From contig CAXXVZ010000005.1 in NCBI GenBank assembly GCA_963678065.2, forward strand, positions 128,001 to 192,000: a stretch of 64,000 nucleotides of DNA, written 5' to 3'. The notes below the pieces were generated by a model that saw nothing but the letters and a program-made list of their open reading frames with translations, was not told where the DNA came from and did not search any database. Shown piece by piece: positions 12,702 through 36,337 of this stretch. A program made the position numbers and the translations under genes. The stretch is from Treponemataceae bacterium. GTDB lineage: Bacteria; Spirochaetota; Spirochaetia; Treponematales; Rectinemataceae. Every line of letters begins with the position of its first letter. The stretch's first letter is position 1.

Positions 12702-13046
12702 TTACTTTCCCGCCGAGAGGGCTTCTTCCCGGGTTTCGTGGATGTCGAGGATCTTGTGCAGACGCACGAGCTCGAACAGGACGCGGATGGGCTTGGAGAC
12801 GCAGCAGACCCTGAAATCCCCGCCCCGTTCTCCGATTCCGCGCATGATGGAGAGAATGGAGCCAAGTCCGGCCGAATCGATGAAATTGACGCCCGTCAGA
12901 TCGAGCACGACTTTTTTGACAGGCTGGACCAGGGGCGCCGACTGGGCGCGGAAATCGGCGACATTGGATGCGTCGATATGGTCGCTGGAGATAAGAAGCA
13001 CGAGTCTGTCTCCCGCCTGCTCTCCGCTCACGATGTATTTGCTCAT
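12702..13046 (-). CDS. STAS-domain anti-sigma-factor antagonist (RsbV/SpoIIAA-like)
   Basis: VVLDLTGVNFIDSAGLG with the phosphorylatable Ser; GAGGAG RBS before MSKYIV; last gene of the polysaccharide operon. Confidence 0.9.
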   Translation of the reverse strand: MSKYIVSGEQAGDRLVLLISSDHIDASNVADFRAQSAPLVQPVKKVVLDLTGVNFIDSAGLGSILSIMRGIGERGGDFRVCCVSKPIRVLFELVRLHKILDIHETREEALSAGK

Positions 13047-13095
13047 GAAAAACTCCTCATGCCCATTTGTCAGAGGAACTATACACCCGCTCCCC

Positions 13096-14382
13096 TCACG
13101 ATGCAACATCGCCCGTCAGAAGCGCCCGGATGATTTTCCGGTTCAGCGAACGCGGGTCGGCATATTTCTGTCCCGAGGCCTGCCAGGCCTCCGCCGCGAA
13201 GCACTCCCACTCGTCGCAATCCGGAGGAAGCGTCACCCATTCCCCGAGCAGGCCCATCGTAGAAGTCAGGGCGATCGAAGCGTGCAGCTCCGAGAGGGCA
13301 TCCATCCTCTCCGGGCTCCGCGGCGGAAGTCCCCAAAGGGCCACTCCGCCCGCCGCGACGTTGACGAGGGAAGGCAGGAAATCGGAGAAGAATCGCGGAA
13401 CGCTGGAGGAAAAGGCGGCTGGTCGCCGGTAGATCCGGTGGCGCCACCGGGAGCGGGGACCGCGGTCGGGTGTCGCGACGATGTGTTCCCGGCGGTAGAG
13501 CGGCCGCTTTCCCGACAGAGAGGCTATGGTCATGGCGGGAAAAAGGACGGGCGCGGCGAGGCCGAGGGCGAGGATCGCCCAGAGCCGCTCGGAGATGGAG
13601 GCCGGCGATGGCTGGACCCGCCAAGAGCTCGCTATCAATGTGTCATCCAGCACGATGGCCGCATCGGACTTCGGTTTGTACACCGATCCGCCATCCACGA
13701 CAGCGTCCCTGATCTCGAGACCGTCGCCGAGGAAAGTCCAGGGAAGGACCACAGAGGAAGCCACTTCAGTCCCGTTTCCGACGATTACGCCGCGCTCGAG
13801 CACTGCGTCGGGGCCCACGACAGCCCCGGGACCGATCTCGACGCCTTCCGCGAGAAAGACGGGTGGGTTGATCCTGGCAGTCGGGTGGATGCTCACGTGG
13901 TGGGAAATCCTGACACCCGCCGACCTCTCCCGGCCGGGAGGCACCATGCCGGGGAGTTTACCGCGCAGGAGGGCGATGGATTCGTCCATGAAGCCCCCCA
14001 GAGTGAATACATCGGGAACGGGAGCTTCCCCGAAGAGGGACTCCGCTCCCGGCATCACGGGATAGCGCAGGCAATCGAAAACGGAGGCTCCGCCCCAGGC
14101 CGAGGCCAAGTCCTGTGCCCGCTTTTCCGGATCGGCGTCCGACTTGCACAAGGCTGTCGATATCTTCACGCCCCAGCGCTCTCCGGCTCCGAGCACGGCC
14201 CTGAAACGCTCGGGCTCTTCCCGAAGGAGAAAGCGCAGATCCCGGTAACCTTTGTCCGAGAGCAACTCTACCGCGCGCTGGATCACCGGGCGCCCTGCCA
14301 CAGGAAGAAACTCCGCCAGGGTCGGCAGGATTACCCCGCCGGTCTCGAGATGCCTTCCCACGGCGATGATGACGGCTTTCAT
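13096..14382 (-). CDS. Degenerate NDP-sugar pyrophosphorylase-like / hexapeptide-repeat / sugar-transferase-like fusion protein
   Basis: MKAVIIA...LPVAGRPVI...GERWGVKI, then left-handed beta-helix repeats (IHPTARINPPVFLAEGVEIGPGAVVGP), one TM, then LPSLVNVAAGGVALWG. Confidence 0.7.
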   Translation of the reverse strand: MKAVIIAVGRHLETGGVILPTLAEFLPVAGRPVIQRAVELLSDKGYRDLRFLLREEPERFRAVLGAGERWGVKISTALCKSDADPEKRAQDLASAWGGASVFDCLRYPVMPGAESLFGEAPVPDVFTLGGFMDESIALLRGKLPGMVPPGRERSAGVRISHHVSIHPTARINPPVFLAEGVEIGPGAVVGPDAVLERGVIVGNGTEVASSVVLPWTFLGDGLEIRDAVVDGGSVYKPKSDAAIVLDDTLIASSWRVQPSPASISERLWAILALGLAAPVLFPAMTIASLSGKRPLYRREHIVATPDRGPRSRWRHRIYRRPAAFSSSVPRFFSDFLPSLVNVAAGGVALWGLPPRSPERMDALSELHASIALTSTMGLLGEWVTLPPDCDEWECFAAEAWQASGQKYADPRSLNRKIIRALLTGDVAS

Positions 14383-15119
14383 GCGCGGCCTCCGCTTCGT
14401 CCCATCCAGATCGAACGGGTCAGGAATATGATATTTCCGAGAAGATACCTGCGCCACATCCGCGCGGGCTCCATGGCCAGGCGGAAAACCCACTCGATTC
14501 CGACCGACCGCATCCAGAGCGGGGCTCGCGGCATGCGGTCGGAGTAGAAGTCGAAGAGTCCGCCCACGGCGAGAACCGCCGCAACCCCGGATTCCCGCGC
14601 CCATGCGTCGATCCAGAGCTCCTGGCGCGGCACGCCCATGCCGACAAAGAGGACATCGGCCCTTGAATCGCGCACCTCGCGGGCGGCGACCGCCGGATCG
14701 GAAAAGAAACCGGAGCGGAAACCCGCGATCTTCACCGCAGGCCACTTCTCCCCGACCTTCGCCGCGAGAGCCTCCACGACTTCGCGCTTCGCGCCGAGGA
14801 AAAAGACGGAGGAGCCTGTTTTTCCGAATCGGTCCATGAGGAGGGGAAAGAGGTCCGTGCCGTTGACATTGGGGACTTTGCCGATGCGCTGTATCCTGGC
14901 GGCGGCGGCCACGCCCGAACCATCGGCGAACACGAGGTCGGCCCTTTCAAGGGCAGCGCGGTATTCAGGCCTTTTCCACGCCACGTTCGCGCAGTGGGCG
15001 TTGAGGAAATAGATCCGGGAACAGCCCGCGTGAGTCCGGGCGGCTTTGTCGACGATATCCACGGCCTCGCCGATTTCCACCCTGTCCACGGGCAGTTTCT
15101 GTATCCTGACCCTCTCCAT
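14379..15119 (-). CDS. WecB/TagA/CpsF-family glycosyltransferase
   Basis: ADGSGV, NGTDL, VGMGVPRQELW, VGGLFDF, RAP.WM...EW..RL..EP.R..RRY. Confidence 0.93.
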   Translation of the reverse strand: MERVRIQKLPVDRVEIGEAVDIVDKAARTHAGCSRIYFLNAHCANVAWKRPEYRAALERADLVFADGSGVAAAARIQRIGKVPNVNGTDLFPLLMDRFGKTGSSVFFLGAKREVVEALAAKVGEKWPAVKIAGFRSGFFSDPAVAAREVRDSRADVLFVGMGVPRQELWIDAWARESGVAAVLAVGGLFDFYSDRMPRAPLWMRSVGIEWVFRLAMEPARMWRRYLLGNIIFLTRSIWMGRSGGRA

Positions 15120-15120
15120 G

Positions 15121-16452
15121 TCAGTACGCTCCCTTGCCGGTCAGGACGGCGGGGATCGTCGCGAGGAGGAGGCGGAGGTCGAGAGAGAGACTGCGGCTCT
15201 CCAGATACTCGACATCGAGCTCCACCTGCCTGGGGAAGGGGATTTCGGAGCGGCCCGAGACCTGCCAGATGCAAGTCAGGCCGGGAACGGCCTCGAGGCG
15301 CCTGCGGTCCGCGGCCGTGTAGAGGGCGACCTCCCGGGGGACAGGCGGCCTCGGACCGACGAGGGAGAGGTCCCCTTTCAGGATGGACCAGAGCTGGGGC
15401 AGCTCGTCGAGGCTGTACTTGCGGATGACGAAGCCTATGGGGATGATGCGCGGATCCCTCTTCATCTTGAAGGTGATGCCGCCGGACATCTCGTTTTTGG
15501 CGAGGAGCTTGTCCTTCAGCTTGTCGGCATCCCGCACCATCGAGCGGAATTTCGGAAACGGAAAGGATTTTCCGTACTTTCCGATCCTGGTCTGGCTGTA
15601 GAAGACGGGGCCCGGATCGTCGAGCCATATGAGAAAGGCGACAAGGGCGAAGACCGGCCAGATAACCATGAGGAGGAGGGACACGAGCGTGACGTCGAGG
15701 ACCCGCTTCATGGCTGGGTACACTTTGTCCGACATGAACATCCGGAAGACGGGTCCGAAGCCCTTGGCAGCCGGGGCTGGGTGGGAGTAGCGGGACTCCA
15801 TCGCCTTTATGAGCGCGAGCCGGTCGGCCATCTCCGGCATTCCCTCCTGCGCGGAAGTCTGCGAAGGCGAGGCGGAAGGAGTCGCCCCCGCGACGCTCTT
15901 GTCGATGAGCCAGAGAATTTTCTGCGCGAGGAGATCCTGTCCCTCTTCCTCGTCCAGGACGAGGGTCGACGAGGCGAGGGCCTCGGGCGCCCAGGAACGG
16001 TATTCGGGCTCGATCGAGTCCGAATACATGGCGAGCGCCTCGACGCCGCCGGGAGATCCGGCCTCCATCAGGGCGTCGGCCCAGCGGAGGAGCATCAGGC
16101 GCTCCTCGATGTCGATGAAGACTTTCAGCGTGCACAGGGCCGCGATTCCGGGGACGGCGCACAGGGGGCCGAGGACGAGGAGAAGAACCCCGGCCTGGCC
16201 GGAATCCTTCTCGGCGATAATCTCGGCCCGGAAGGAGTCCAGGTCGTAGGATGAGGGGTTCTCAGTCGCGGCCAATGCGAGGTCTTTCCCTGCCTGCCGG
16301 AGGTTTTCGGCCGTGCGGACATATTTCGCGGCTTCCACGACGCGCACCTGGGTTTTCCCGCCCGCGGAAAGCCCCGCGGACACTCGCCCGGCGATGGATC
16401 GGGCTCCGGTCACGGCGGAGCCTCCGAGTCCCACGACAATGCATCCGCTCAT
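15121..16452 (-). CDS. Priming phosphoglycosyltransferase with an N-terminal uridine-kinase-like domain
   Basis: C-terminal KR.LD, KFRSM, DPRI, LDELPQL, SLVGPRP, PGLTCIWQVSGRS. N-terminal ~165 aa follows uridine kinase motif order. ATGA overlap with the upstream gene. Confidence 0.88.
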   Translation of the reverse strand: MSGCIVVGLGGSAVTGARSIAGRVSAGLSAGGKTQVRVVEAAKYVRTAENLRQAGKDLALAATENPSSYDLDSFRAEIIAEKDSGQAGVLLLVLGPLCAVPGIAALCTLKVFIDIEERLMLLRWADALMEAGSPGGVEALAMYSDSIEPEYRSWAPEALASSTLVLDEEEGQDLLAQKILWLIDKSVAGATPSASPSQTSAQEGMPEMADRLALIKAMESRYSHPAPAAKGFGPVFRMFMSDKVYPAMKRVLDVTLVSLLLMVIWPVFALVAFLIWLDDPGPVFYSQTRIGKYGKSFPFPKFRSMVRDADKLKDKLLAKNEMSGGITFKMKRDPRIIPIGFVIRKYSLDELPQLWSILKGDLSLVGPRPPVPREVALYTAADRRRLEAVPGLTCIWQVSGRSEIPFPRQVELDVEYLESRSLSLDLRLLLATIPAVLTGKGAY

Positions 16453-17600
16453 TTCTTTCCCCTCCGCGCGGCATCGAGTATCAGGTCGAGTGTGAGTCTT
16501 GCGGTCTGCTCCCATCCTGAGTTCGCTGTCCTCGCGAACCCCCTGGTCCTCAGCGAACCGAGGAGCCCGGGGTCGCCCGCGGCCATCTCGAGCTTGGCCT
16601 CGATGTCGGCCTCATTCTCGGGATCGAAATAGACGGCGGCGTCGCCCCCGACTTCGGGCAGGGAGGAGCGGTCGGAGCAGAACACGGGCACTCCCGCCGC
16701 CATGGCCTCGAGTATGGGCATCCCGAAGCCCTCGAAGAGAGAGGGGAAGAAAAGCGCTTCGGCTCCCCCGTAGAGTCCCATGAGGTCCTCGTTCGCGACG
16801 AAACCCGTGAAGCGGATGGAGTCCGCCGCGACGCACTCGGACGCGGCCTTGTGGACCAGCTCCGCGCGGTCCCAGTCGGCCCCCGCGAGGATGAGAGAGT
16901 GAGGCGCCCCCGTTCTGGCCTTGAAATCCGCGAAGGCTCTGATGAGCCGGACATGGTTTTTCCCGGGGTGCTCTATCCTCGATATGAACAGAAAATACGG
17001 CTTTCGCAGCCCGAGGCGCTCAGCCACGGCTCCGGCGTCCGCCGCCGCCGCGACAGGCGAGAAGCGCGCAAGGTCGACGCCGTGGAAGATGACGCTGATC
17101 CGGGAAGGATCGACGCGGGCGGTGCGCACGAGGTCGTCCTTCGTCGCTCCGCTGATCGAGATGACCTTGTCGAGGCCCCGGATGAGGCCGGGCACAAGCC
17201 CTTTTATGTAGATCTCGTGGCTCAGGGGGTATTTCCCCTTCATGTGAAGGCTGGAGAGATCGTGCACGGTTCCGACGGTAGGCACGCCGGCGAGGAGCGG
17301 AAGCCGCCTGTTCGCAGCGGGGAAAAACAGGACATCGATGCGGTTGCGCCTGCAGAACCCGCGCAGATGGGTGGCGTTCCAGAGGACATTCGGCAAGGGG
17401 CGCGTCACCTTTTCGTCGATGGGGATGAAGGAGAATCTCGGCGAATGCGGCATGAACACATCGCCCGCCTCCTCTGTTCCGAAAAGGATGTACTCCTCTT
17501 CGCCGGGAAGAAGGGCGAGAGATTTCAGAATCTCGATCAGGTAACGGCTGATGCCCGATTTGCCGAGATCGCAGCCCGACAAAGGTATTCCTATTCTCAT
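16449..17600 (-). CDS. Glycosyltransferase family 4
   Basis: TVHDL, KN..RLI, FPSLFEGFGMPILEAMA; start re-called at MRIGIP. Confidence 0.92.
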   Translation of the reverse strand: MRIGIPLSGCDLGKSGISRYLIEILKSLALLPGEEEYILFGTEEAGDVFMPHSPRFSFIPIDEKVTRPLPNVLWNATHLRGFCRRNRIDVLFFPAANRRLPLLAGVPTVGTVHDLSSLHMKGKYPLSHEIYIKGLVPGLIRGLDKVISISGATKDDLVRTARVDPSRISVIFHGVDLARFSPVAAAADAGAVAERLGLRKPYFLFISRIEHPGKNHVRLIRAFADFKARTGAPHSLILAGADWDRAELVHKAASECVAADSIRFTGFVANEDLMGLYGGAEALFFPSLFEGFGMPILEAMAAGVPVFCSDRSSLPEVGGDAAVYFDPENEADIEAKLEMAAGDPGLLGSLRTRGFARTANSGWEQTARLTLDLILDAARRGKK

Positions 17601-18841
17601 CGTATTCCTCCGGATTTCGGAACCGGGCCCTCCGGGATCGAAGCGACAGGGCTCAGATGGCGAAGCAAGTTGTCGATGCTGGACTCGAAGGCGTACTCGG
17701 TCGCCGCGATCCTCCGTCCGGCCTCGCCCATGGACTTCGCGAGGCTCCTGTCGTCGAGGAGCCTGCGGATGGCCGCTCCGAGGGCCGCGAGGTCGGCGCA
17801 GGGCGCGAGGATGCCGTTCACCCCGTCGCGGAGCCAGTCGGGGATTCCCCCCGATGCAAAACCGACGACAGGCAGGGATTTGCGCATGGCCTCGAGGCCG
17901 ATCATTCCGAAGGGCTCCGGCCAGCGGGAGGGCACGACTAGGCACTCGGCCCCGCGATAGAGGACGTCGAGCTTATCAGGGGAAATGGAGCCCTCGAAGC
18001 GGACGCGCGATTCGAGTCCCCGTTCGCGGACGAGCTCGCGCAGGCCGTCCCTGGCATTGCCGGACCCCGCGATGGAGAGTCGCAGTCCGGGGTAGTCAGG
18101 CGCGAGAAGGGAGAAAGCCTCGATGAGGAGGTCGACGCCTTTCCCGCGGATGAGCTGTCCGACATAGAGAATGTAGCGCCCGGCGGTGTTTCCGGGAGAG
18201 AGTTCCGCTGGCGGCGCGGCCGGCGGACCGGACAAAGATGCCGGCAGCGCCGGAGATGTCGGCGGCACGGGCGGCAGGATCGAAACCCGCTCAGGATCGA
18301 ATCCGTTGGCCAGAAGCTCGTTCCGCATGTAGGTCGAGCCGACGAGGATCCACGGAAGGCGCCGGTTGTCCGCGAGTTCGGAGAAGAAGCGGAAAGGTGA
18401 CTTGAAACCGATGAAGCGCCCCTTCCTCTCGATGAAACCCGCGTCGAAAAAGCAGAAGGCTCCGGCCGGCCGGTCGCAGATCGCCGAATTGGAGGCGTAG
18501 TACTTGTGCCGGCGGGGGCAGACCGTATCGTGATCGTGGATGTAGCGGATGAGCTTTATCCCCGGATCGAGCCGGAGGAAAGGTGCGACCCTGTCGACCT
18601 TGTGCAGGAAAACAGTGTCGAAGCTCCGCCGCCGCGCCTCATCGGCGAGGCCCGCCTCATCCTCCGCCCGGAACCACTCGGGGAAGGCCGCGAGGTAGTC
18701 GCCCGTCTCCTCTCCCCTCTGCTCGACGAAGCCGAGCGCGCAGTGAACGCCTTTCGCCGCGAGCGCGATGGCTGCCCGCCGCACATAGACCTCCACGCCG
18801 CCGAAGGCTCCGGCGTAACGGTTGACGAAGAGAACCCTCAT
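17597..18841 (-). CDS. Glycosyltransferase family 4
   Basis: GQLIRGKG, PSRWPEPFGMIGLEAM. Confidence 0.92.
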   Translation of the reverse strand: MRVLFVNRYAGAFGGVEVYVRRAAIALAAKGVHCALGFVEQRGEETGDYLAAFPEWFRAEDEAGLADEARRRSFDTVFLHKVDRVAPFLRLDPGIKLIRYIHDHDTVCPRRHKYYASNSAICDRPAGAFCFFDAGFIERKGRFIGFKSPFRFFSELADNRRLPWILVGSTYMRNELLANGFDPERVSILPPVPPTSPALPASLSGPPAAPPAELSPGNTAGRYILYVGQLIRGKGVDLLIEAFSLLAPDYPGLRLSIAGSGNARDGLRELVRERGLESRVRFEGSISPDKLDVLYRGAECLVVPSRWPEPFGMIGLEAMRKSLPVVGFASGGIPDWLRDGVNGILAPCADLAALGAAIRRLLDDRSLAKSMGEAGRRIAATEYAFESSIDNLLRHLSPVASIPEGPVPKSGGIR

Positions 18842-20109
18842 GCGCGTTTTCCTCTGGAACGGCAGGATATCCTGAGCTCTTCATAGAGAGCGTCGAGCCG
18901 GTCCACGATGCGGTCCCAGGTATAATGGGCCTCGACCTCGGCCTGGCCGCTGCGTGTGAGGTTTCGCGCCAGCTCCCTGTCTCCGAGGATCTCGAACACC
19001 GCACGGGAAGCCTCGGCGACGCTGTCGGCTCCGGTCCCGGGCGCGAAGAGGAGGCCGTTCCTCCGGTCTGTCACGAAGGCGGGGATGCCGCCGACTCTCG
19101 CCGCGACAAGAGGAAGTCCAGCCGCCCAGGCCTCCAGAGCAACGACTCCGAAGGGCTCATGGATGGAGGGCAGAAGGAAGCAGTCCGCCGCAGCATAGGC
19201 CGCCGCGAGTTCTCCCGAGGCGTAATCCAGCTGTCCCGCAAGGATGGCCGCCCCGGAGAGGCCCTTACGCTCGATTTCGGACTCGATGGAAGTCCTGTAG
19301 GCCTCGTTGGTCGCGGGTCCGGCCATCACGAGACGGAGCTCCGGCAGCTTCGCGCGCAGCTGTTCGAGGACGGCGACCGCAAGAAGTTGGTTTTTCTGGG
19401 GATCGATCCGTCCGACGACCAGGATGAGGGGAGCTTCGGCCGGGATACCCCGCGCGCGGCGGAAGGCGGCGCCGGCTCCCGGGGGAGCTTTGAAGCGCGC
19501 GGGGTCGACGCCGTTGGGCATGAACTCGATACGCTTCTTCGGCATGGCCGCACGGAGCTCGTCGACCTCGAACCGGTCCACGCAGAGGATGGCATCCGCG
19601 TCGCTCACCACGCTGCGGCCGCCATAGATGAGTCCGATCAGCTTTCCCCACTCCAGGGAGCCTTTGCCGGGCTCGACGAGGTCACGCCGCTCCGATTCGG
19701 GGCTCCGCACGAGACCTCCGTGGAGGCTGATGAGATAGGGTATGCCGCGCCGTCTGGCCGCGGTCCGGACGAGGGCGCCCAGTCTCTTGCCGGTGTGCAG
19801 GTGGAAGATGTCCGGATCTTCCATCGCAAGAAGGCTCCGGTAAAGCCCGAAGGAAACGAGGTTGCCGCCCTTGCGGTCCATCCTGCCGCGGTCTTCCTCG
19901 GAGAGCCCGAGATAGGGATAGATGTGGGGATATCGCTTCACGGGGACTCCCTCGATCGTCTCCTCCCGGGCTTGCGCGAGCGCCATGCTCGTCGCGATAT
20001 GTACGCGGTCGCCGCGGAGAATCTGGCGCCGCGCGGTCTCGAGAATGACAGTCTCCGTGCCGCCCCACGCCTCGCGCACGAAGCGGCGCGGGATGTGCAC
20101 TATGTTCAT
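18838..20109 (-). CDS. Glycosyltransferase family 4
   Basis: GRIDPQKNQ, PSIHEPFGVVALEAW. Confidence 0.92.
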   Translation of the reverse strand: MNIVHIPRRFVREAWGGTETVILETARRQILRGDRVHIATSMALAQAREETIEGVPVKRYPHIYPYLGLSEEDRGRMDRKGGNLVSFGLYRSLLAMEDPDIFHLHTGKRLGALVRTAARRRGIPYLISLHGGLVRSPESERRDLVEPGKGSLEWGKLIGLIYGGRSVVSDADAILCVDRFEVDELRAAMPKKRIEFMPNGVDPARFKAPPGAGAAFRRARGIPAEAPLILVVGRIDPQKNQLLAVAVLEQLRAKLPELRLVMAGPATNEAYRTSIESEIERKGLSGAAILAGQLDYASGELAAAYAAADCFLLPSIHEPFGVVALEAWAAGLPLVAARVGGIPAFVTDRRNGLLFAPGTGADSVAEASRAVFEILGDRELARNLTRSGQAEVEAHYTWDRIVDRLDALYEELRISCRSRGKRA

Positions 20110-25616: not shown

Positions 25617-26974
25617 TTACTTCTCGTCTCCGAGGGGGTTTATTCCCATCTCTTCGAGCCTGCCGATGGCTGCCATGCAGGCCGCTATGTACAGGTATTG
25701 ACACAGAACCGGAGTGATCCGGAAGGCCCATTCGAAGAGGCCGGATATGTGGAGAGCGATCTCTCCCACCCCCGCAGCGAGAGCAATCGCCTCAGGCAGA
25801 TTCCGTTTTCTGCCCCGCTTGAGCAGAAGTCCGGGTTTGGAAACCGCCCACCACAGCGTCAGGTACAATAGAATGATGACGATCATGCCGCCGTAACCTG
25901 TCTCGGCCGCGGAGAGCCAGTAGATGTTGTGGACGACTCCTGCGGATTCCTCGTTGGCCATGACCTCGACATGGGCATTGTACTTGTCGACGAGGGTCAT
26001 AGTCTCGGAAAAATTGTTGAGGCCGACGCCGAGCGGTCTGTCCTGGCCATCATCTTCGCGGCTATCTTGAACTCTTCGCGCGCTTGTTCACTCGATTCGG
26101 GCGCGTTCAGGAAGCGGTCGATGATGGTCTTCGCGACCATGACTCCGCCGATCGCGGCGAGAACCGCGAACACAAGGATAGTCGCCTTCGCCCGCGTCGA
26201 CAACTTGAGTCTCGTCGCGAGGAAAAAAGCCACGGCGCAAGCCATGACCGCGAGCATCATCCCGAGCCGCGACTGGGTGGCCACGACGGAGATAAGTCCC
26301 GCCCCGACAGCGCCCATCATGAGCAGGAACTCCACATTGCCGATCCTCTTGTCCCCCAGCGCCCAGACGAGGATGGTCGGGGCGGCGGGATTGACGAAGA
26401 GGGGAATGGTGTTGGAATGGTCGAACGGGCCTTTCACCCGATAATAGCCTTCGAGGAATTTTTGCTTGAGCGAAAAGAAGCCCACGAAGAGCAGCCCCGC
26501 CGTCAGGCCGCGGCGCACCCCGGTGTAGAAGACGGAAGGATCCTTCTCCCCTGTGGCGGAAGCCCAGATGATGGCATAGACCATCGTGATGCGCAGAAAT
26601 TTGATGACAGTGAACATACCGAAAAAGGGTTGCAGGGCCCCCGAAAGTCCGGCGGCCCCGATCGCGACATAGACGAGGAGGATGGCGAGCCCTGGCGCCG
26701 CCTTCTTGGGGCGCCTGCGGTCAATATAGGTTCCGAGCTGCCGGGACAATAACAGTCCCAGCGCGACCATCTCGGCGAAGGTGAGTTCGAGCCCTCGGTC
26801 GGGCCCGCGGTATGTCTCTACAGAGAAGAAATTGATGCCTGACATGTCCCCCATCGCGGGTATGAACATGAGCAGTGCGTAACAGGCCGAACGGAGTTTC
26901 GCGCTCTGCGAGGCGGCAAAGGCGATCGCCGGAATGCCGCCGGCGAAGACTAGCACGAAAATGAAATACTTCAT
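25617..26974 (-). pseudogene. Wzy polymerase / O-antigen-ligase-like membrane protein split by a single frameshift near 26043
   Basis: ORF 25997-26974 (KGPFDHSN, TQSR.G) continues in another frame as DRPLGVGLNNF...VHNIYWLSAAETG. Real lesion or assembly error. Confidence 0.75.
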
Positions 26975-28175: not shown

Positions 28176-29077
28176 GTTCCTTCCTTGCCGTCGGGGCCGG
28201 CGCCGCTGTTTCCGGCTCCGCGACGGGCTGCCATCGCGGCAAGAGCGTCCCTGAAGCCCTTCCGCCTGCCCGCCGCCATCACGGCCCTCGTGAGCGGCGA
28301 GGCGAAGGCCCCCCCGACCGCGCCGTGCGCGAGGCACCAGCCCAGGTCGGAGAGGACGAGGCGCCCCCACGGCAGGACCGTATACCTCAGAAACCCCCTC
28401 CGTCCCGAGGGCAGGTCGAAGATTTCGGCTTCCGCGTAGCCTTCTCCGTACTGCCGCCTGTGCAGCTGGCGCAGCGTGTAGTTGTGCGAGTGGAATACCG
28501 CCGAATCCGGCCTGTAGACTATCCTGTATCCGGCGGCGCGCGCCCTCCATGTCCAGTCGATATCCTCGGAATACTTCAGAATCTCTGAAAACCTCATGGT
28601 TTCCCAGACTCCTCGCCGGATGCAGCAGGAAGCCATCGAAAAGCAGTGCAGCCACCGGGCCTGGCGGGCACCGTCGCCAAAGGTGAACAGCGTGTCCTTC
28701 GCCATGAGCGGGCTGGCGTCCGGACGGGGGTCCTGTCTGCTGAAGCAGGCAGCGACCGTTTCGTCCGCCATGCCCGCGACGAGCGATGAGAGCCATCTCT
28801 CGTCCCTGGGCTCGCAGTCACAGTTGAGGAAGACGACGATTTCGCCTTCGGTCTCCTCCATGGCCCTGTTGAGGACAGCGCCGGGAATGTAGGCGCCTTC
28901 GGGGATATCGACGATGCGGTCGGCATATTTCGCCGCCAACTCCCTCGTGCCGTCGGTGGAGGCGTTGTCGAGCACGAGGAGGCGACAGGGCATCGACTGC
29001 TTCCGGATACCCTCCAGAGTCTTTCCGACGAGGGCGATGTCGTTGCGGGAGCGCATGACCACCCAGACGGGGTTCAC
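28172..29077 (-). CDS. Glycosyltransferase family 2 (rhamnosyltransferase-like)
   Basis: LDNASTDGT, VFLNCD, SEDIDW, VFHSH. Confidence 0.9.
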   Translation of the reverse strand: MNPVWVVMRSRNDIALVGKTLEGIRKQSMPCRLLVLDNASTDGTRELAAKYADRIVDIPEGAYIPGAVLNRAMEETEGEIVVFLNCDCEPRDERWLSSLVAGMADETVAACFSRQDPRPDASPLMAKDTLFTFGDGARQARWLHCFSMASCCIRRGVWETMRFSEILKYSEDIDWTWRARAAGYRIVYRPDSAVFHSHNYTLRQLHRRQYGEGYAEAEIFDLPSGRRGFLRYTVLPWGRLVLSDLGWCLAHGAVGGAFASPLTRAVMAAGRRKGFRDALAAMAARRGAGNSGAGPDGKEGT

Positions 29078-30216
29078 AGGCCGACCTCCGACTTCATGAG
29101 AGTGAAGAGGTCGGCGAGTCCCCTGGGCTCGGTCCCGAGGGGCACGTTCGAGATGAAGGAAGCCATCGACCCCGGCTCAGCGGGCTCGTAGCCGTGCATG
29201 CCGGCGAGGGGCTTGACCCCCATGAAGCTCGGGCAGAGGAGGACGCCGGGGTTCATGAGGAAGAAGAGATCGCCGTAGCGCCTGTCCGGGAAGTCGACGC
29301 CCCAGTCATGCAGGGTTGTCTCGTCGAGAATGCGCCCGTCGGGAACACCCGAGAGCAGCTTTCTCACCTTCGCTTCGGCGCCAGGTTTCAGGAACCAGAA
29401 TCGCGCCATCGTCGAGTCGAAGACCGCGGCGTAGTCCTCGCCGAATTCGAGGCCGCTCCCCTCCAGTGTCGCCATGAGGGGGCAGGTTTTTCTGATATCC
29501 GTCATGCCGTGGTCGGAAAACACGAAGAGCCTCACCTCGTCGTAGACTTCGCGGGAACCGCGGATAAGGTCGCGCAGGGTACTCTCGTAGCCGTCGATCT
29601 TGGCTTTCACCTTCTCGGAGGCAGTGCCGACGGCGTGCAGGAGGGCGTCCATCTGCGCGAGGTAGAGATAGACCATGCGGGGTTTTCCCGTCGCGATGGC
29701 AGCCGCCGCGTCGGCGACAGCCTCCGTCTCCCCTTTGTGCCAGTCGGAGCGGAAGTAGGGGATGCCGGCTTTGTCCATGAGGACGAATACGCTCGGCTGC
29801 CCGCCGTTGATGCCGCCCTCGAGGTAGATGTCTTTCTTCTCGGTGTAGTCGAAGAGATGGATCAGGTCGAAGGGGACGGCGTAGAGCTGGAAATACCCTG
29901 TGTAGCCGTAGGCCTTTTTAACAAACCGACTGACCACATTGCGCACGCGGCCCCGGTCGGCCAGGCTCCGGGGAAGGAAGCGGAGGACCCGCAGCGGCCT
30001 GAAGGGGGATTTCGCCGGATCATACACGAAAAACGAAAAGTGGCCGTGGTCCCGCGGGGCCGCGCCCGTGATGATAGTCGGGTCGCAGGTCGAACTGTAG
30101 CCGAACACGGTCTCGAGCGGCTTCTTGATGCGGGCCTCAGGCTCGAGGAAGTCGCGGTTCCGCACGAGTTCCCAGCCGAGTGCGTCGATGAAAACGAACA
30201 GGGACAGTGTCTTCAT
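29074..30216 (-). CDS. Alkaline-phosphatase-superfamily nucleotide pyrophosphatase/phosphodiesterase
   Basis: FIDALG, GYSST..PTI.TG, D..LH, FSDHGM, GMHGY metal ligands; GAGGAG RBS before MKTLSL. Confidence 0.8.
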   Translation of the reverse strand: MKTLSLFVFIDALGWELVRNRDFLEPEARIKKPLETVFGYSSTCDPTIITGAAPRDHGHFSFFVYDPAKSPFRPLRVLRFLPRSLADRGRVRNVVSRFVKKAYGYTGYFQLYAVPFDLIHLFDYTEKKDIYLEGGINGGQPSVFVLMDKAGIPYFRSDWHKGETEAVADAAAAIATGKPRMVYLYLAQMDALLHAVGTASEKVKAKIDGYESTLRDLIRGSREVYDEVRLFVFSDHGMTDIRKTCPLMATLEGSGLEFGEDYAAVFDSTMARFWFLKPGAEAKVRKLLSGVPDGRILDETTLHDWGVDFPDRRYGDLFFLMNPGVLLCPSFMGVKPLAGMHGYEPAEPGSMASFISNVPLGTEPRGLADLFTLMKSEVGL

Positions 30217-30230: not shown

Positions 30231-30707
30231 TCAGCCCGGATGCCGGAAGAGTGTTCCGGCGAAGGCGGCGAGTTTCGGTCCGAAAACCAGAACCCCCGTG
30301 CACACTGAAGAGAGGGCCGCGAGAAGCACCGCCCCGCTGGCCGCGTCCTTGGAACCCTTGGCATTGTAGTGGTAATCGCTCGTCACGAGGTCCACCGTCA
30401 GCTCGAGGGAGGTATTCTTGACCTCGAGGGCGAGCACGAAGAACACATTTGTGAGAATGAGTGCCCACTCCACGGCCCCGATGCCGAAGACGAATCCTGC
30501 GGCGATCACCGCGGCGGTCATGGCGAGCTCGAACCGGAAATTGCGCTCCGAGAGGGAGGTCAGGACTATCCCCTTGATGGCGTTGCGCAGACTCCGCCGG
30601 AAACTTTTATTCTTGCCGACGACCGATCCCTGATTCTCCTCTTCGGCGATAAACAGCAGCAGCCTTTCGGCTATTCTCCCCCGGATGACTTCGCGGCCTG
30701 TTTTCAT
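30231..30707 (-). CDS. dgkA: DgkA-family diacylglycerol/undecaprenol kinase
   Basis: A.KGI.....ERNFR, LEVKNTSLE..VDL, KDAASGAVL; 3 TMs. Confidence 0.8.
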   Translation of the reverse strand: MKTGREVIRGRIAERLLLFIAEEENQGSVVGKNKSFRRSLRNAIKGIVLTSLSERNFRFELAMTAAVIAAGFVFGIGAVEWALILTNVFFVLALEVKNTSLELTVDLVTSDYHYNAKGSKDAASGAVLLAALSSVCTGVLVFGPKLAAFAGTLFRHPG

Positions 30708-32185
30708 GGCGTCTTTCCTTCGCTCTGTGAGATGATTTCCACGAATTTGCCAATGGGAATCTTGAGGTTGACGATGGCGGTCACCGTGTCGAGAAAATAC
30801 CCGGCGCGCGCCCGGTCGAGGGCCGACTCCACCTCCACCATGGTACTCACGGCGGAAAGCCTGTCGATCTCTGTCACGACACTCTGATCCTGCAGTTTTT
30901 TGTAGACATCGGCGAGGCGAAGCTTTTCCTTGTATTGGGCTGAGAGGGATTCTATCCTGTCCCTGCGGTTCTGGAGGAGAATCCGGTACTCGGCGAGAAG
31001 TCGGTTGGCCGAGTCTCCTGCGTCCATGGCGACATTGGTCCGTAATTCTTTCAATTGGGCGATGTTTTTCGCCCGCTCGGCCTTCTCGTTGCCGAGGGGC
31101 AGCGTGAAGCCGAGAGTTCCGGAAACGACCGGGGCTATCTGCTTGTCGTTGTCGTTCCAACCCAATTTTGCGTCCACCGAGGCCGTGAATGTGGCAGCCT
31201 TCGCAACCACTTCAGCAGAGAGTTCGGCCAGCCTCAAGTCCCATCCCGCCGTGGCCGTCTCGGCAGCGACGGGAGCCGGATCGGCCGTTTCGAGGAGGGG
31301 TTCGAGTATCCGGGCGAGAGCTTCCAGATCGGAGCCCTGGAAAAAGTCAGGCTCTTCGCGCGACGCGACAGAGTCCCCGCCTCCATCGGAGGCGCCGCCA
31401 AAGGAGGCGGGTCTGGCGCGGGCGCGGGCCTCCCGCCCCAGGCGGCCGGACTCGTAGAAGGCATCAGATGCGGCGGCCTGCGACCTTTCGAGGGCGTCTT
31501 TCTCCTCGAGATAGTCGGCCCTGGAGATTTTCCCTCCCTGCATGAGAACTTCCATGCGCCGGAGGTTCTTTTCCAGATAGTCGTTCCTGGCCTTCGCTTT
31601 CAGCGCGTCGGAACGCGAACTCGCGGAGAGAGCGGCGAGGGAACAGACTTCGAGAAAGCTCGACAGGGCCTTGTCCTCGAGTCCGCGGACCCGGCCGGCC
31701 AGCTCTATGTTCCGCAGCACTTCGCTCGGCGGAAGGCTACCGCGCGCTGAGGGAGCGAGCCGTATGGTCGTCTGCGCCGCAACATAGGGTCCGAGGAAAA
31801 CAGCGAGCGGATCGTAGAGGGAATCCTTGTGGACATTGACCTCCCCTCCTGCAGAGAACTCCCAGGAAAAGCGCTCGGAGGAGGCCGGACCGGGAGAAGT
31901 CACGGAGAGGCCCGCGCGGGGGACAACGGACCATGTGCTTTGGGAGCCGTCCACGGCTCCCGAACCCTGAGCCTTGAGAGCGAGGGCAGGGGCGCGTGAT
32001 CCGGTCCCCAGCCGTGACGTGTCCAGTACCTGTCCTGTGGATCTGGCCTTTTCCAGCGAAGCGGCCAGACCCGTAATCCAGTTGGTCTCGCCTGCGGAAC
32101 AAGGCTGGGCCACAAGGGCCACCGCGAAGACCGCCGCGATGGTCCTCGCGAGGGAAAAATCGGACAGCTGAAATCGGCGTACCAT
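30704..32185 (-). CDS. TolC-like outer-membrane efflux protein, first gene of the polysaccharide operon
   Basis: Signal peptide; two repeats of beta-strands plus long helices with efflux-protein turn motifs (LMQGGKISRADYL; LQDQSVVTEIDRL). Confidence 0.6.
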   Translation of the reverse strand: MVRRFQLSDFSLARTIAAVFAVALVAQPCSAGETNWITGLAASLEKARSTGQVLDTSRLGTGSRAPALALKAQGSGAVDGSQSTWSVVPRAGLSVTSPGPASSERFSWEFSAGGEVNVHKDSLYDPLAVFLGPYVAAQTTIRLAPSARGSLPPSEVLRNIELAGRVRGLEDKALSSFLEVCSLAALSASSRSDALKAKARNDYLEKNLRRMEVLMQGGKISRADYLEEKDALERSQAAASDAFYESGRLGREARARARPASFGGASDGGGDSVASREEPDFFQGSDLEALARILEPLLETADPAPVAAETATAGWDLRLAELSAEVVAKAATFTASVDAKLGWNDNDKQIAPVVSGTLGFTLPLGNEKAERAKNIAQLKELRTNVAMDAGDSANRLLAEYRILLQNRRDRIESLSAQYKEKLRLADVYKKLQDQSVVTEIDRLSAVSTMVEVESALDRARAGYFLDTVTAIVNLKIPIGKFVEIISQSEGKTP

Positions 32186-32191
32186 TCTCCG

Positions 32192-32277
32192 AGTATAGCA
32201 TCGCGGTCTGTCTCAGTCGACACAATTCCTTGGCAAACAGGAATCGCTTCCGCAGAGAACGGAGGGGATGCTATACT
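32192..32277. promoter_or_regulatory. Divergent pair of extended -10 promoters
   Basis: GATGCTATACTC occurs on each strand; TATACT at 32197-32192 (minus) and 32272-32277 (plus), each 6 nt before an ATG. Confidence 0.6.
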
Positions 32278-32283
32278 CTTTGC

Positions 32284-34281
32284 ATGATGCCGCAAACCGA
32301 ACGGACCGTCATCCTCATCGTGGACGACGACGCGAACAATCTCAGGCTTCTGGGTCTGATCCTGCGAGACGCTGGCTACGAGGCACTCGCCGTGCGCGAC
32401 CCCGAACGGGTTCTCGCCGTCATCAAGGCGAAATCGCCCGAAATCGTCCTGCTCGACGTCTCGATGCCCAAGATAAACGGCTACGATGTGTGCAAGCAAA
32501 TCCTGTCCGAGCCGGGATACGCCCGCCTTCCTGTCATCTTCCTCACTGCCAGGACCGAGCCGGAGGATCTCATCCGCGGCTTCAAGGCAGGGGCGGTGGA
32601 CTACGTGACGAAACCATTCAACAAGACCGAACTTCTGGAGCGCGTCAAAAACCACATCGACCGCTGCCGCTACGAAAAGTCGCTCGCCGACGAGAAGGAT
32701 CGTTTCCGCATCATGACGGAGAGTGTCGCGGAGGCCTTCATCCTCATCGGCGATGACATGAAGAAGATCGAGTATGTCAGTCCGGCCTTTGAGCGCATCT
32801 TCGGTTTCTCGCCGCCCGGCACATCGGCCAGGCTGGATTTCCTCGCATCCTTCGTCTCCGCCGTGGATATCGAAAGCCTGAACATACTCCTCACAAAGAC
32901 AGTCCGTCAGGGCATTCCGGGCAGCATAGAACTCCAGGTCACCCGCCCCGACGGCGTGGTCCGCTGGGCTTGGCTCCGGTCCACCGTCTCCAGCCTGGGA
33001 GGCGAGACCAAGCTGATCTGCGTGGTCGCGGACATCACCGAAAAGAAAACCGCGGAGCTGCAGATCCTCCGCGCGCACGAGGTCGCGGCCAGACTTGCGG
33101 GAGAAACCCGCAAGAGCCTCTCGACCTACGAGACGCGGCTCCGGAGTCTCGGCATCGACTCCGGCCTGCTCTCCATACCCTGCAAGAACATAGACGGCGA
33201 CTTCTTCGACATATTCATCAACAGAGAAACCGTGGATATCGTGGTCGGGGACGTGATGGGCAAGGGCATACACGCCGCCCTCGTCAGCTCGGGAGCCCGC
33301 ACCTGGTTCCTCCGGGCGCGCTTCCGCTTCGGCACCGGCAAGACCGGCCTCCCCTCGCCCGCCGTCATGGTCACGGACGTGGACCGTGCCATGACGCCCC
33401 ACCTCATCGGACTCAACTCCTTCTTCACCGCCCAGTACCTGCGCATCGACAGGGACGAAGGCTACCTCGAATTCGTGGACTGCGGTCACACGCCCATCCT
33501 CGTATGGGACGGCGAGAACTGCTGGTCTTACAAAGGAACGAACACGCCTATCGGATTCTTCGAGAATCAGAAATTCACTGCGCACCGACTGCCCTTCGGC
33601 CCCGAATCCGTCTTCATGGTGTATTCCGACGGAGTGACCGACACGATCAACCCCTCGGGAGATTCTTTCGGCGAGGAGAGGCTTCGCGAGGGTTTCGTCA
33701 GGAACGCCGGTAAATCCGCGCCGGAAATAGTCGCGGCGATGAGGGCCGAACTCGAGGACTTCGCCGCCGGGGCGCCCTGGAAAGACGACATCACGCTGGC
33801 CGCGTTCCGCATCGCGGAGGAGCCACCTGTTCCGGCTCCTCTGTACCGGAAATCCTTCGTCCTCCCCTCCAGTCTCGAATGCCTTTCCGAGGTGCGGAAG
33901 CTCCTCTCGGAAGCGCTCTCGTGCTACGACGATGCCGTCATGAACGAGACGAACCGGAGTCTGGCCATTCTTGCCGTCAACGAGGCGGCTTCCAACATCA
34001 TCATCCACGGGCTCAAGAAAATGCCGGCTGAAAGCTTCCGTTTCGCGCTGGAGGTCCACCCATCCTGGTACGCCATCACCTTCTCCTACCCAGGCCCCGA
34101 TTTCGATTGGGCCAGGATCAAGAAGTCCTCCGTCATCAACCTGGACGAGTCGGGCTACGGCATGGACATCATGCGCGAGACCATGTTCAGCGTGCTGTTC
34201 GCCCGCAACAGCCTCGGGGTGGCTCAATTCACCTTGACGGGACTGCCCGGAGGCAACGAGGCCGACGATGAATCCTGGTAA
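32284..34281 (+). CDS. REC-PAS-PP2C (SpoIIE/RsbU) phosphatase fused to an RsbW-like HATPase domain
   Basis: IVLLDVSMP; PAS (YVSPAFERIFG); DGDFFD, GDVMGKG, SDGVTD, DDITL; LAVNEAASNIIIHG, ESGYGM. Confidence 0.88.
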   Translation: MMPQTERTVILIVDDDANNLRLLGLILRDAGYEALAVRDPERVLAVIKAKSPEIVLLDVSMPKINGYDVCKQILSEPGYARLPVIFLTARTEPEDLIRGFKAGAVDYVTKPFNKTELLERVKNHIDRCRYEKSLADEKDRFRIMTESVAEAFILIGDDMKKIEYVSPAFERIFGFSPPGTSARLDFLASFVSAVDIESLNILLTKTVRQGIPGSIELQVTRPDGVVRWAWLRSTVSSLGGETKLICVVADITEKKTAELQILRAHEVAARLAGETRKSLSTYETRLRSLGIDSGLLSIPCKNIDGDFFDIFINRETVDIVVGDVMGKGIHAALVSSGARTWFLRARFRFGTGKTGLPSPAVMVTDVDRAMTPHLIGLNSFFTAQYLRIDRDEGYLEFVDCGHTPILVWDGENCWSYKGTNTPIGFFENQKFTAHRLPFGPESVFMVYSDGVTDTINPSGDSFGEERLREGFVRNAGKSAPEIVAAMRAELEDFAAGAPWKDDITLAAFRIAEEPPVPAPLYRKSFVLPSSLECLSEVRKLLSEALSCYDDAVMNETNRSLAILAVNEAASNIIIHGLKKMPAESFRFALEVHPSWYAITFSYPGPDFDWARIKKSSVINLDESGYGMDIMRETMFSVLFARNSLGVAQFTLTGLPGGNEADDESW

Positions 34282-36337
34282 TGACCCTGTCTCTTGCCTT
34301 TCATCCCGGCCAATGGACGATCCCGAGGAGACTCGGCAGGCCGAGGGGGCGCGCGTCCTTTTGCGCGTGTCCTCGCGGGCCGTGGCTCTCCTTCTGAGGG
34401 AACGCGACTTCGACGTGGCCGTGTCGGAGAGCCTCAGGATAATCGGGGAAGGAGCAAAGGCGGACAGGTCCTACCTTTTCCGCACACACTACGACACCAA
34501 AGGCGCAGGGTCGATGAGTCTGCGCTTCGAATGGAATTCCGGAGTCGCCGCGCCGCAGATCGACAACCCCCGGCTCCAGGACATGCCCTTCGAGGCTCTC
34601 CCCCAATTCATCGAATCCATGCTGAAAGGCGAAATTTTCCACGGCCAGGTCAGCAGTTTCGATGAAAATCTCAAGGCCATTCTCGAACCCCAGCAGATTC
34701 TCTCCATTATCATCCTTCCGATTATGGTGGACGGCGTCTTCTGGGGCTTCGTGGGCTTCGACGACTGCACGACCGGGCGCGTCTGGCACGAAGACGAACG
34801 CGCCATCCTGCTCGCCTACACGAGCGCGATCGGCGCCGTGGTCGAAAGGGTGAACAGGGAAAACGAAATCTGGGCCGCCAAGGCGGCGGCCGAATCGGCC
34901 AACAAGGCAAAAAGCGCCTTCGTCGCCAACGTATCCCATGAAATACGCACCCCCCTCAACGCCATCCTCGGCTTCGCCGAGCTGGTCATGGACAGGACGA
35001 CAGACCCCAAACTCAAAGAGTACGGGGAAGGCATCAGTATCGCGGGACACAACCTCCTCTCCCTGATAAACGACATCCTCGATCTCTCCAAGATCGAAGC
35101 AAACAGGCTGGAAATCCGACCGAGGCCCATCTCATTGCCGGGCATGCTTGCGGAAATGCGGAGTGTGTTCAGCCTGAAAGCCGAAAAACAAGGCCTCGAC
35201 TACGATGTCCTTATCCCGGAGAACCTGCCCGAAACCATCATCGCCGACCCGACCAGAATCCGGCAGATCCTGTTCAACCTCATCGGCAACGCATTCAAGT
35301 ACACGGAGAAAGGCTATGTCAGGCTCGGATGCTCCTCCAGGCCCTCGGGGGCGAACAGGGTCGACATCGAGATCACGGTGGCTGATTCCGGCATCGGCAT
35401 ACCGGAAAACCAGCAAAACAATGTCTTCGAGGCTTTCCGGCAGCACGAAGACGACAGCACCCGCAAGTACGGCGGCACAGGGCTCGGACTGACCATCACG
35501 CGGAGGATCGCCAACCTCATGGGCGGACGGATTACAGTCCGGAGCGCGCTTGGAAAGGGAAGCGTCTTCACGGTTCACCTGCCGAAGATTCCGGTCACCG
35601 AAGAGAAGCGCGGCCGCGAGGAAGTCACAGCCAAGAACAGAGTGTTCGCCCCCGCCACAGTCCTGCTCGTCGACGACATCGCTTCAAACAGAGCCGTCAT
35701 GCGCGGCTTCCTCGAGAACACGGCGATAAAACTCCTGGAGGCGGGAAACGGCGAAGAGGCGCTGGAGATAGTGAAAAAAGTGAAGCCCGACATGATATTC
35801 ATGGACATGCAGATGCCTGTCATGGACGGAAGGACGGCGCTCCGGGAACTGCGGGAGACCCCTTCGACTTCCAAGATTCCGGTCGTGGCGCTCACCGCGA
35901 GCGCGCTCGGCCGCGATGAGGACGACATAAAGACTCTGTGCGAAGGCTATCTGCGCAAACCCGTTTCCAGGACCGAACTTTTCGCCGAGATGGCCCGCTT
36001 CCTCGACTCCGAAGGCCAGGGTCCCGCGAAGGAGGCCCGCGCCGAACCGCCGTCGAATCTTTCGGATGTGAAGCGTTTTTCTTTTCCACAGTCCTACTGC
36101 GCGCTTTTCGAGGGCAAATGGCGGCATGCCTCGGAGCTGCTCAGCATCGACGACCTCGGCAACTTCGCGGGCGACCTCGCCATAGAGGCGGCGAAGCTCG
36201 ATGACGAGGTCGCCATGAAATACGCCGCGGAGCTCGCCGACGCCTGCGCGTCATTCGACCTCGTCCGGATGGAGGCAGTCTTCGCGAGATTCCCCGAACT
36301 CGCGGGTTTTGCCTGCGGCGACGGGGATATACTCTGA
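34268..36337 (+). CDS. Hybrid sensor histidine kinase (GAF-HisKA-HATPase-REC)
   Basis: GAF (FWGFVGFDDC), SHEIRTPLN, NLIGNAFKYT, GGTGLGL, FMDMQMP. Confidence 0.92.
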   Translation: MNPGNDPVSCLSSRPMDDPEETRQAEGARVLLRVSSRAVALLLRERDFDVAVSESLRIIGEGAKADRSYLFRTHYDTKGAGSMSLRFEWNSGVAAPQIDNPRLQDMPFEALPQFIESMLKGEIFHGQVSSFDENLKAILEPQQILSIIILPIMVDGVFWGFVGFDDCTTGRVWHEDERAILLAYTSAIGAVVERVNRENEIWAAKAAAESANKAKSAFVANVSHEIRTPLNAILGFAELVMDRTTDPKLKEYGEGISIAGHNLLSLINDILDLSKIEANRLEIRPRPISLPGMLAEMRSVFSLKAEKQGLDYDVLIPENLPETIIADPTRIRQILFNLIGNAFKYTEKGYVRLGCSSRPSGANRVDIEITVADSGIGIPENQQNNVFEAFRQHEDDSTRKYGGTGLGLTITRRIANLMGGRITVRSALGKGSVFTVHLPKIPVTEEKRGREEVTAKNRVFAPATVLLVDDIASNRAVMRGFLENTAIKLLEAGNGEEALEIVKKVKPDMIFMDMQMPVMDGRTALRELRETPSTSKIPVVALTASALGRDEDDIKTLCEGYLRKPVSRTELFAEMARFLDSEGQGPAKEARAEPPSNLSDVKRFSFPQSYCALFEGKWRHASELLSIDDLGNFAGDLAIEAAKLDDEVAMKYAAELADACASFDLVRMEAVFARFPELAGFACGDGDIL

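Follow-up and report, generated by a model that had tools for sequence, protein, structure and literature searches.

The stretch of DNA analyzed here, called the window throughout, comprises 64,000 nucleotides from a Treponemataceae bacterium (family Rectinemataceae; assembly GCA_963678065.2, contig CAXXVZ010000005.1, positions 128,001 to 192,000) and contains, between positions 12702 and 36337, a polysaccharide locus flanked by signaling genes. An earlier sequence-only reading had described a 16-gene Wzx/Wzy-type operon closing with a free STAS protein whose DSAG motif is intact. Gene calls and Pfam matches bear this out: 16 minus-strand genes are packed from 32185 down to 12702, and neighboring genes either overlap by 4 nt or stand no more than 49 nt apart. 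The order is an outer-membrane-efflux protein (OEP)-like gene, dgkA, a phosphodiesterase, a family 2 glycosyltransferase (GT2), a nucleotidyltransferase-like gene, wzy, wzx, wzc, four family 4 glycosyltransferases (GT4), a priming transferase (Bac_transf), WecG, an NTP-transferase/hexapeptide protein and STAS. The divergent genes for a REC-PAS-PP2C-HATPase protein (hereafter, the regulator) and a GAF hybrid kinase, which the same reading had proposed, are likewise supported by their Pfam domains and begin 98 bases from the operon. In window coordinates, the features are:

12702-13046, minus strand: free STAS protein, 114 amino acids, the final operon gene (Pfam STAS, 61.7 bits; DSAG, Ser58)
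13096-14382, minus strand: NTP-transferase-like/hexapeptide-repeat protein (Hexapep and Arch_glmU-like matches; conserved in relatives)
14379-15119, minus strand: WecG/TagA/CpsF glycosyltransferase (PF03808, 180.7 bits)
15121-16452, minus strand: priming phosphoglycosyl transferase (Bac_transf, PF02397) with an N-terminal uridine-kinase/PRK fold
16449-21374, minus strand: four GT4 genes at 16449-17600, 17597-18841, 18838-20109 and 20106-21374 (PF00534 each)
21378-24068, minus strand: Wzc-like co-polymerase, 896 amino acids (architecture, Foldseek, structure model)
23760-24068, minus strand: fused STAS-fold domain, Wzc residues 1-103 (structural Z scores; Pro49 at the phosphoserine site)
24085-25605, minus strand: Wzx flippase (PF01943, 45.7 bits)
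25617-26974, minus strand: Wzy-like polymerase/ligase (Wzy_C, E 0.00029)
26982-28175, minus strand: presumed nucleotidyltransferase-like protein (GxGRG-like motif)
28172-29077, minus strand: GT2 (Pfam)
29074-30216, minus strand: type I phosphodiesterase (Pfam)
30231-30707, minus strand: DgkA-family diacylglycerol/undecaprenol kinase (PF01219, 95.8 bits)
30704-32185, minus strand: outer-membrane-efflux (TolC)-like protein, the first operon gene (OEP, E 0.06; Atlas 0.97-0.98 to putative OEP clusters)
32186-32283, unstranded: promoter region between the divergent units (two extended -10 elements, TGn-TATACT)
32284-34281, plus strand: REC-PAS-PP2C(SpoIIE)-RsbW-like HATPase_c_2 protein, 665 amino acids (Pfam)
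34268-36337, plus strand: GAF-HisKA-HATPase-REC hybrid histidine kinase (Pfam)

The starts of the STAS gene (13046) and of the regulator gene (32284) are corrected ones. We take the 26982-28175 protein to be nucleotidyltransferase-like from its GxGRG-like motif; it had no family match and no PDB match in the searches made. A broken wzy (frameshift near 26041) was considered and rejected as an assembly error, since contigs of 4/4 sequencing runs (from four studies, one of them possibly the source of the assembly) carry one more C at this place, and wzy is thus intact; both of its pieces align to a single 463-aa relative. Metatranscriptome RNA contigs from one dataset match parts of the operon, among them 23812-24066; such contigs cannot give level, strand or starts and may contain DNA.

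The regulator has the domain order REC-PAS-PP2C-kinase, so that the HsbR-type REC-PP2C-kinase order read from the sequence holds with a PAS domain added. Its receiver residues (D58, T88 and K110) are intact. In an alignment of 27 homologs (P0158-P0184, several of them close kin, with two more matches that lack the HATPase domain excluded), the PP2C metal aspartates D306, D323, D449, D501 and D502 and the HATPase residues E567, N571, H575, G604, G624 and G626 are invariant in 27/27. The family profile matched RsbW (6m36, E 2e-18) and also SpoIIAB. The G1 aspartate of GHKL kinases is an adenine-binding residue; in the regulator, the G1 box is Y602-P-G604, with Tyr602 in place of the Asp of DxG, just as the sequence-only reading had noted. 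Across the 27 homologs, this position is occupied by Tyr 13 times, by His 11 times and by Asp three times. Since the replacement is shared family-wide, it is a conserved variant and not a local decay, and we rejected a decayed kinase because Tyr or His is the family norm (24/27) and the other catalytic residues are invariant. The doubt that YPG had raised is thereby softened, with kinase activity itself a prediction from these residues. A literature search, which here and below covered mostly openly readable papers, found no publication on a G1-variant RsbW. The PP2C-HATPase family, represented in the window by 33900-34281 (plus strand), is widespread. Two further RsbW/RsbT-like genes of the genome sit far from the locus. 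The hybrid kinase carries His224, Asp513 and a helical C-terminal tail with no Pfam Hpt match, and is 43-47% identical to kinases at the same position in three relatives.

Ser58 of the free STAS protein, the predicted phosphoacceptor, is invariant in 8/8 STAS proteins of such loci. The protein keeps 61-63% identity between genera, and its dN/dS among three relatives (0.08-0.11) indicates strong purifying selection. As the genome has two Pfam STAS matches and two SpoIIE matches, with one of each at the polysaccharide locus, the free STAS protein would, by exclusion, pair with the PP2C-HATPase of the locus. A membrane GGDEF gene (11436-12572, plus strand) converges on the free STAS gene.

Are the signaling genes linked to the operon in relatives? 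A genome scan found four related loci, three in Rectinemataceae of one genus and one in a Gemmatimonadota genome, and a PP2C-HATPase gene and a Ser-bearing STAS gene adjoin the operon in 4/4, across two phyla. Thus the gene-neighborhood check that had been proposed comes out in favor of linkage. The co-occurrence of STAS, PP2C-HATPase and STAS-Wzc, put forward for checking by the sequence-only reading, stands for the first two in all four loci, but STAS-Wzc is lacking at the Gemmatimonadota locus. In the three spirochaete loci, the hybrid kinase and regulator genes diverge from OEP and dgkA, with wzy, wzx, STAS-wzc, the GT4 genes, the transferase, wecG, NTP-transferase and STAS following further on; these loci add a second Ser-bearing STAS gene after dgkA, and in one the tail of the locus is on a separate contig. 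On the Gemmatimonadota contig, the sugar genes are the same and are accompanied by two free STAS genes, a GAF-PAS-PP2C-HATPase protein (YKG at G1) and a sigma54 activator; the hybrid kinase is absent from this locus, and GAF/PAS replaces REC on the PP2C-HATPase protein. For P0003/P0159 and for P0005/P0161, equal lengths of the longest contig suggest that the genes may be linked in a further two genomes.

Close regulator homologs (E <= 1e-110) and a GT4 ortholog occur in the same 3/68 other genomes of the family, all of one genus. The remaining three genomes of that genus have neither, and three more of the 68 have a weaker regulator paralog only. Searches for the GT4 ortholog found none among 400 sampled Spirochaetota, among 300 sampled Gemmatimonadota besides the known locus, in plasmids or in viral contigs, yet a protein collection holds 780 close GT4 homologs whose source names include Planctomycetota, Sumerlaeota and Deltaproteobacteria. 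Because it was not found in the sampled genomes while its GT4 homologs are spread across phyla, the cassette is, to judge from these searches, rare and mobile (horizontally moving).

The relatives show several further peculiarities. One spirochaete, G013, carries a sigma54 activator after the kinase gene and, farther downstream, a sigma54 site ahead of genes of unrelated kind; the site is near-consensus and lies upstream of two related genes for 710-aa lipoprotein-like proteins (L006, 8254-14405). In the window, the place behind the kinase gene is taken by a PspA-like coiled-coil gene (36363-36863, plus strand). G013 also has one GT4 gene in two frames (L005, 13343-14544; a break or an assembly error), and its phosphodiesterase/GT2 block is relocated about 20 kb from the operon place. 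A second STAS and PP2C-HATPase pair is present at G449:C87, G450:C76 and G451:C21, and a weaker paralog is present in relatives that lack the cassette.

The sequence-only reading also saw a second STAS-like domain on the co-polymerase, and structural comparison establishes a true STAS fold. The protein comprises the STAS fold, a linker, a transmembrane helix (182-200), a periplasmic coiled coil, a second transmembrane helix (629-647) and an ATPase domain like that of bacterial tyrosine kinases (BY-kinases); Wzc-type architecture and a P-loop domain are supported by Foldseek (Wzc, E 3e-17) and by NCBIfam (Wzc, E 1.6e-19, below cut-off). As in polysaccharide co-polymerases of the Wzc/BY-kinase PCP-2a type, there are two transmembrane helices, a periplasmic coiled coil and a C-terminal P-loop, and structural comparison places the protein closest to Wzc and CapAB; unlike such co-polymerases, it has no tyrosine cluster, an altered Walker A'/B, no Wzb or Wza in its locus and the extra N-terminal STAS fold. 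Residues 1-103 fall under the Pfam cut-off (STAS_2, E 0.00095). Residues 11-100 are modeled at a per-residue confidence (pLDDT) of ~78-88, and the full-length model has a predicted template modeling score (pTM) of 0.33 and does not fix the placement of the STAS domain. The fused domain matches the STAS structure 4xs5 at Z 15.1 (rmsd 2.6 Å, 109 residues), SpoIIAA (1tid_B) at Z 13.6 (rmsd 2.2 Å over 100 residues) and RsbS at Z 13.4, and HHalign links it to the free STAS profile at 91%. Since it is N-terminal to the first transmembrane helix, it is predicted to be cytoplasmic, as is the ATPase domain.

The D-S-A-G of free STAS aligns to E48-P49-E50-A51 in the fused domain. Among nine fused-domain sequences (seven aligned, P0107 and L009), the phosphoserine site is Pro in 8/9, Ala in 1/9 and Ser in 0/9. 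With no canonical Ser, the fused domain is predicted not to be switchable at that site, and by its sequence it cannot itself serve as the phospho-switch. It is present in all nine clade sequences that have an N-terminus, although in one genus it is cut down to ~77 residues. Between genera, it retains 18-33% identity as against 45-66% for the remaining Wzc, and inside the window's own clade 65-72% as against 68-91%, evolving 3-4 times faster than the rest of the protein. In three genomes of one genus, dN/dS is 0.33-0.38 for the fused domain, 0.34-0.48 for the disordered linker and 0.08-0.11 for the periplasmic and ATPase parts; the fused-domain ratio is like that of the linker, is above that of the periplasmic and ATPase parts and of the free STAS (Fisher P 0.002-0.014) and still departs from neutrality (binomial P 0.003-0.02, assuming 72% non-synonymous sites). 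By these rates, the fused domain is under relaxed selection and loosely conserved. Outside the clade we found no STAS-Wzc fusion: among 156 Wzc relatives (the best 150 of 53,616 matches plus those of an earlier search, with more distant Wzc not covered), the fused-domain profile matched solely the clade's eight proteins. At the Gemmatimonadota locus, Wzc is unfused although the same switch genes are present. The Walker A'/B motifs of the window's Wzc are altered (DTE and EAP), and 7/7 clade proteins have no Tyr in the last 25 residues; however, no more than one C-terminal Tyr occurs in 89/97 aligned Wzc relatives, whether or not they carry a fusion, so the fusion does not account for Tyr loss. 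The literature search, from which supplements were excluded, found no publication on a STAS-Wzc fusion; the fusion itself is genuine.

The priming transferase carries a fusion as well. Its residues ~1-190 adopt a uridine-kinase/PRK fold (best Atlas matches PRK/uridine kinase, 0.92; Foldseek UCK2, E 2.5e-8; Z 12.8 to 3asy; model pLDDT ~70) with a P-loop that lacks GKT/S. The fold is retained in 2/2 aligned spirochaete relatives and absent at the Gemmatimonadota locus. This pseudo-uridine-kinase domain is a candidate nucleotide sensor or docking site; we found no publication describing a uridine-kinase fold joined to a priming transferase. The locus has no Wza/OPX gene, the sole Poly_export match of the genome being on another contig, and family searches identified none of the 16 operon products as a Wzb-type phosphatase. 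The long coiled coil of Wzc gave middling matches to AcrA/HlyD hairpins (Z ~10). A TolC-type exit route for the polymer is possible. The Poly_export (OPX) protein on the other contig is unusually long (3578 aa; G000:C3:287939-298675) and is encoded upstream of a Wzz-like gene in a separate polysaccharide locus.

Both divergent units are predicted to have leaderless, housekeeping-sigma promoters. TGn-TATACT extended -10 elements lie at 32192-32197 (minus strand) and 32272-32277 (plus strand), each 6 nt ahead of an ATG, and genome-wide such hexamers peak 6 nt before the ATG of long frames (60, compared with 8-34 at the other 29 spacings), a peak that points, as a sequence signal, to leaderless mRNAs in this spirochaete. 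A sigma54 promoter pattern was unmatched in 12000-36900. That no sigma factor gene is present, as first read, agrees with the finding that 0/7 sigma70-family genes of the genome are in the window (sigma54 itself was not searched). Housekeeping promoters fit post-transcriptional control without proving it.

This arrangement resembles that of Vibrio fischeri SypE/SypA (with SypF and SypG): both have a free Ser-STAS, a protein in which a receiver, a PP2C domain and an RsbW-like kinase are combined, a hybrid kinase and a Wzx/Wzy locus, with no sigma factor. The SypE/SypA analogy drawn by the sequence-only reading therefore holds, as a Ser-STAS and a receiver/PP2C/kinase protein stand in a polysaccharide locus. 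According to a 2023 paper (PMC10120452), SypE begins with its kinase domain and controls Ser56 of SypA, and SypA acts below transcription via a target then unknown; we found no later paper naming that target. With its order REC-PAS-PP2C-kinase, the regulator would be SypE-like in its working but is not a SypE ortholog by architecture. A SypG-like sigma54 activator is found in two relatives, but none lies beside the window copy. Also unlike syp, the locus has a replaced G1 Asp, no Wza/OPX gene, a STAS fold on Wzc and a pseudo-uridine-kinase on the priming enzyme.

A second precedent comes from cyanobacteria. In Anabaena PCC 7120, HenR and Alr3423 switch the STAS-Bac_transf protein All4160 while hep transcription is unchanged (bioRxiv 10.64898/2026.04.08.717354; PMC13555669). 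Shared with this system and with Synechocystis XssP are a sigma-independent switch, a machinery-fused STAS and a REC-SpoIIE phosphatase. In All4160, however, the STAS domain joined to the priming transferase has a phosphoserine, S74, whereas here the fused STAS bears Pro and belongs to the co-polymerase; the Bac_transf partner domain here is a uridine-kinase fold, not the STAS of All4160 and XssP; and here the Ser-STAS is free, with kinase and phosphatase in one protein. Given that All4160 is published, STAS at machinery level had already been demonstrated, and the claim of a new system falls: sigma-free STAS control of polysaccharide was known from Vibrio and Anabaena, in the latter with a machinery-fused STAS.

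How might the parts of this locus work together? With slightly better than even confidence, we favor the reading that it is a mobile Wzx/Wzy cassette with its own SypE/SypA-like switch, which would gate synthesis post-translationally; linkage, residue conservation and precedent argue for it. We infer each phosphotransfer step, the sign of control and the target. The hybrid kinase would set the activity of the REC-PAS-PP2C-HATPase protein, which would add phosphate to Ser58 of free STAS and remove it, and unphosphorylated STAS would activate polymer synthesis after translation, not through a sigma factor. The presumed sign follows SypA and All4160, both active unphosphorylated. Several points weigh against this reading. 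HsbR and CrsR, the best-studied proteins built in this order, have distant sigma factors as their targets (PMC6482189), and the genome encodes FliA, FlgM and seven sigma70-family genes. The G1 Asp is replaced in 24/27 homologs, which leaves kinase activity predicted only. The linkage comes from a small number of independent lineages, namely two genera within a single family plus one genome from Gemmatimonadota. Finally, a sigma54 activator is part of the module in two relatives, one spirochaete and the Gemmatimonadota genome, so that transcriptional control belongs to the wider family.

If the switch acts on the machinery, which component is its target? A tentative candidate, doubtful but ranked above Wzc, is the initiation step, namely the priming transferase with its pseudo-kinase domain. 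Regulation at this step has a parallel in EpsW, which regulates the priming transferase EpsZ (PMC12802240). Complex prediction, in which controls were not folded, scored free STAS at 0.28 with the full priming transferase and at 0.20 with the ATPase domain of Wzc (650-896); both values are below the mark of 0.32 and speak neither for nor against either partner. Wzc itself is an unlikely target. In one form of this idea, the STAS fold would serve as a fixed pseudo-substrate, either docking the HATPase/PP2C protein or pairing with free STAS, and would replace the missing tyrosine-cluster cycle in gating polymerization and export. In another, to which we give equally little credence, the Serine-less Wzc STAS would replace a sigma factor: the HATPase would hold either the STAS fold of Wzc or free STAS, Ser58 phosphorylation would thereby gate Wzc directly in place of the BY-kinase/Wzb cycle, and the pseudo-uridine-kinase would sense nucleotides. 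A true STAS fold on the same cytoplasmic side as the ATPase domain, its presence in all nine sequences with an N-terminus, the trace of purifying selection (dN/dS < 1), the missing C-terminal Tyr, the altered Walker A'/B and the lack of a Wzb-type phosphatase in the operon would all suit such a role. Yet the fused domain keeps 18-33% identity between genera while its supposed switch partners keep 44-63%; its dN/dS is linker-like (0.33-0.38); it is shortened in one genus and absent from the Gemmatimonadota locus, which has the same switch; and Tyr loss is common without the fusion (89/97). The sequence-only reading took the fusion as a Rosetta stone. The fusion and its fold are real, but as a pointer it is weak, having no Ser, a clade-restricted distribution and a relaxed evolution, and it is unlikely that it identifies Wzc as the target of the switch. 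Most likely, the Wzc STAS fold is a lineage-specific, non-phosphorylatable passenger or docking domain that was fused from an extra STAS gene of the cassette, and not a switch.

Other readings place the output elsewhere. In Pseudomonas HsbR/HsbA and Shewanella CrsR/CrsA, which share the REC-PP2C-kinase order, a free STAS substrate and hybrid-kinase input, HsbR and CrsR bind RpoS, and HsbA binds FlgM and HsbD (PMC6482189). By this model, the HATPase would be an anti-sigma factor, or STAS would bind FlgM, with the sigma factor encoded elsewhere, and this genome has possible partners in FliA, in FlgM and in five sigma70-family genes besides FliA and the largest one. We consider it quite unlikely: the module is inherited with the polysaccharide cassette and was not found in 65/68 family genomes, unlike a core stress or motility regulator, and the predicted promoter of the operon is of housekeeping type. 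In design, the Pseudomonas and Shewanella systems have RpoS, FlgM/FliA and HsbD as their targets; the present regulator has an additional PAS domain, its locus encodes no Hpt protein, and its genes move together with those for a polysaccharide. A further model holds that the HATPase is a pseudokinase that only binds STAS, the regulator being a phosphatase and sequestration module and the kinase elsewhere or absent. Tyr or His at the G1 position in 24/27 family members, together with the failure to find a paper on such a variant, gives it some footing. It is improbable, as Glu567, Asn571, His575 and the G1/G2 glycines, needless for a binding-only domain, are invariant in 27/27, Ser58 and the PP2C site are conserved, and the other RsbW/RsbT-like genes are far away. 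SiaC reportedly activates SiaD, and STAS might likewise activate a diguanylate cyclase so that c-di-GMP drives polymer synthesis. The membrane GGDEF gene at 11436-12572 that converges on the STAS gene could supply such an enzyme, and HsbA binding to HsbD offers a parallel (PMC6482189). This SiaABCD/HsbD-type model is the least probable: no GGDEF gene lies beside the STAS gene in 3/3 spirochaete relatives or on the Gemmatimonadota contig, a dCTP deaminase gene is next to STAS in the two annotated spirochaete relatives, and no c-di-GMP-binding family is found among the 16 operon genes.

The favored reading, of a cassette with its own SypE/SypA-like switch, would extend a recurring type of locus by a spirochaete variant and would not establish a new principle. 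In the papers cited above, the target of SypA was unknown in 2023, and the priming transferase, in cyanobacteria in 2026, is the sole STAS-controlled enzyme shown. The cassette offers two machinery candidates, the STAS fold on Wzc and the pseudo-kinase on the priming enzyme, and also a conserved family of RsbW-like kinases that lacks the G1 Asp. Were Wzc gating true, SypA-like proteins would gain a named target in the co-polymerase.

Finally, we note that the other STAS protein of the genome is also encoded in the window (47313-47885, plus strand), upstream of a small protein and a further gene. It has a C-terminal CxxC..CxxC tail, which we take to be zinc-ribbon-like, and a neighbor that is presumably PspA-like.

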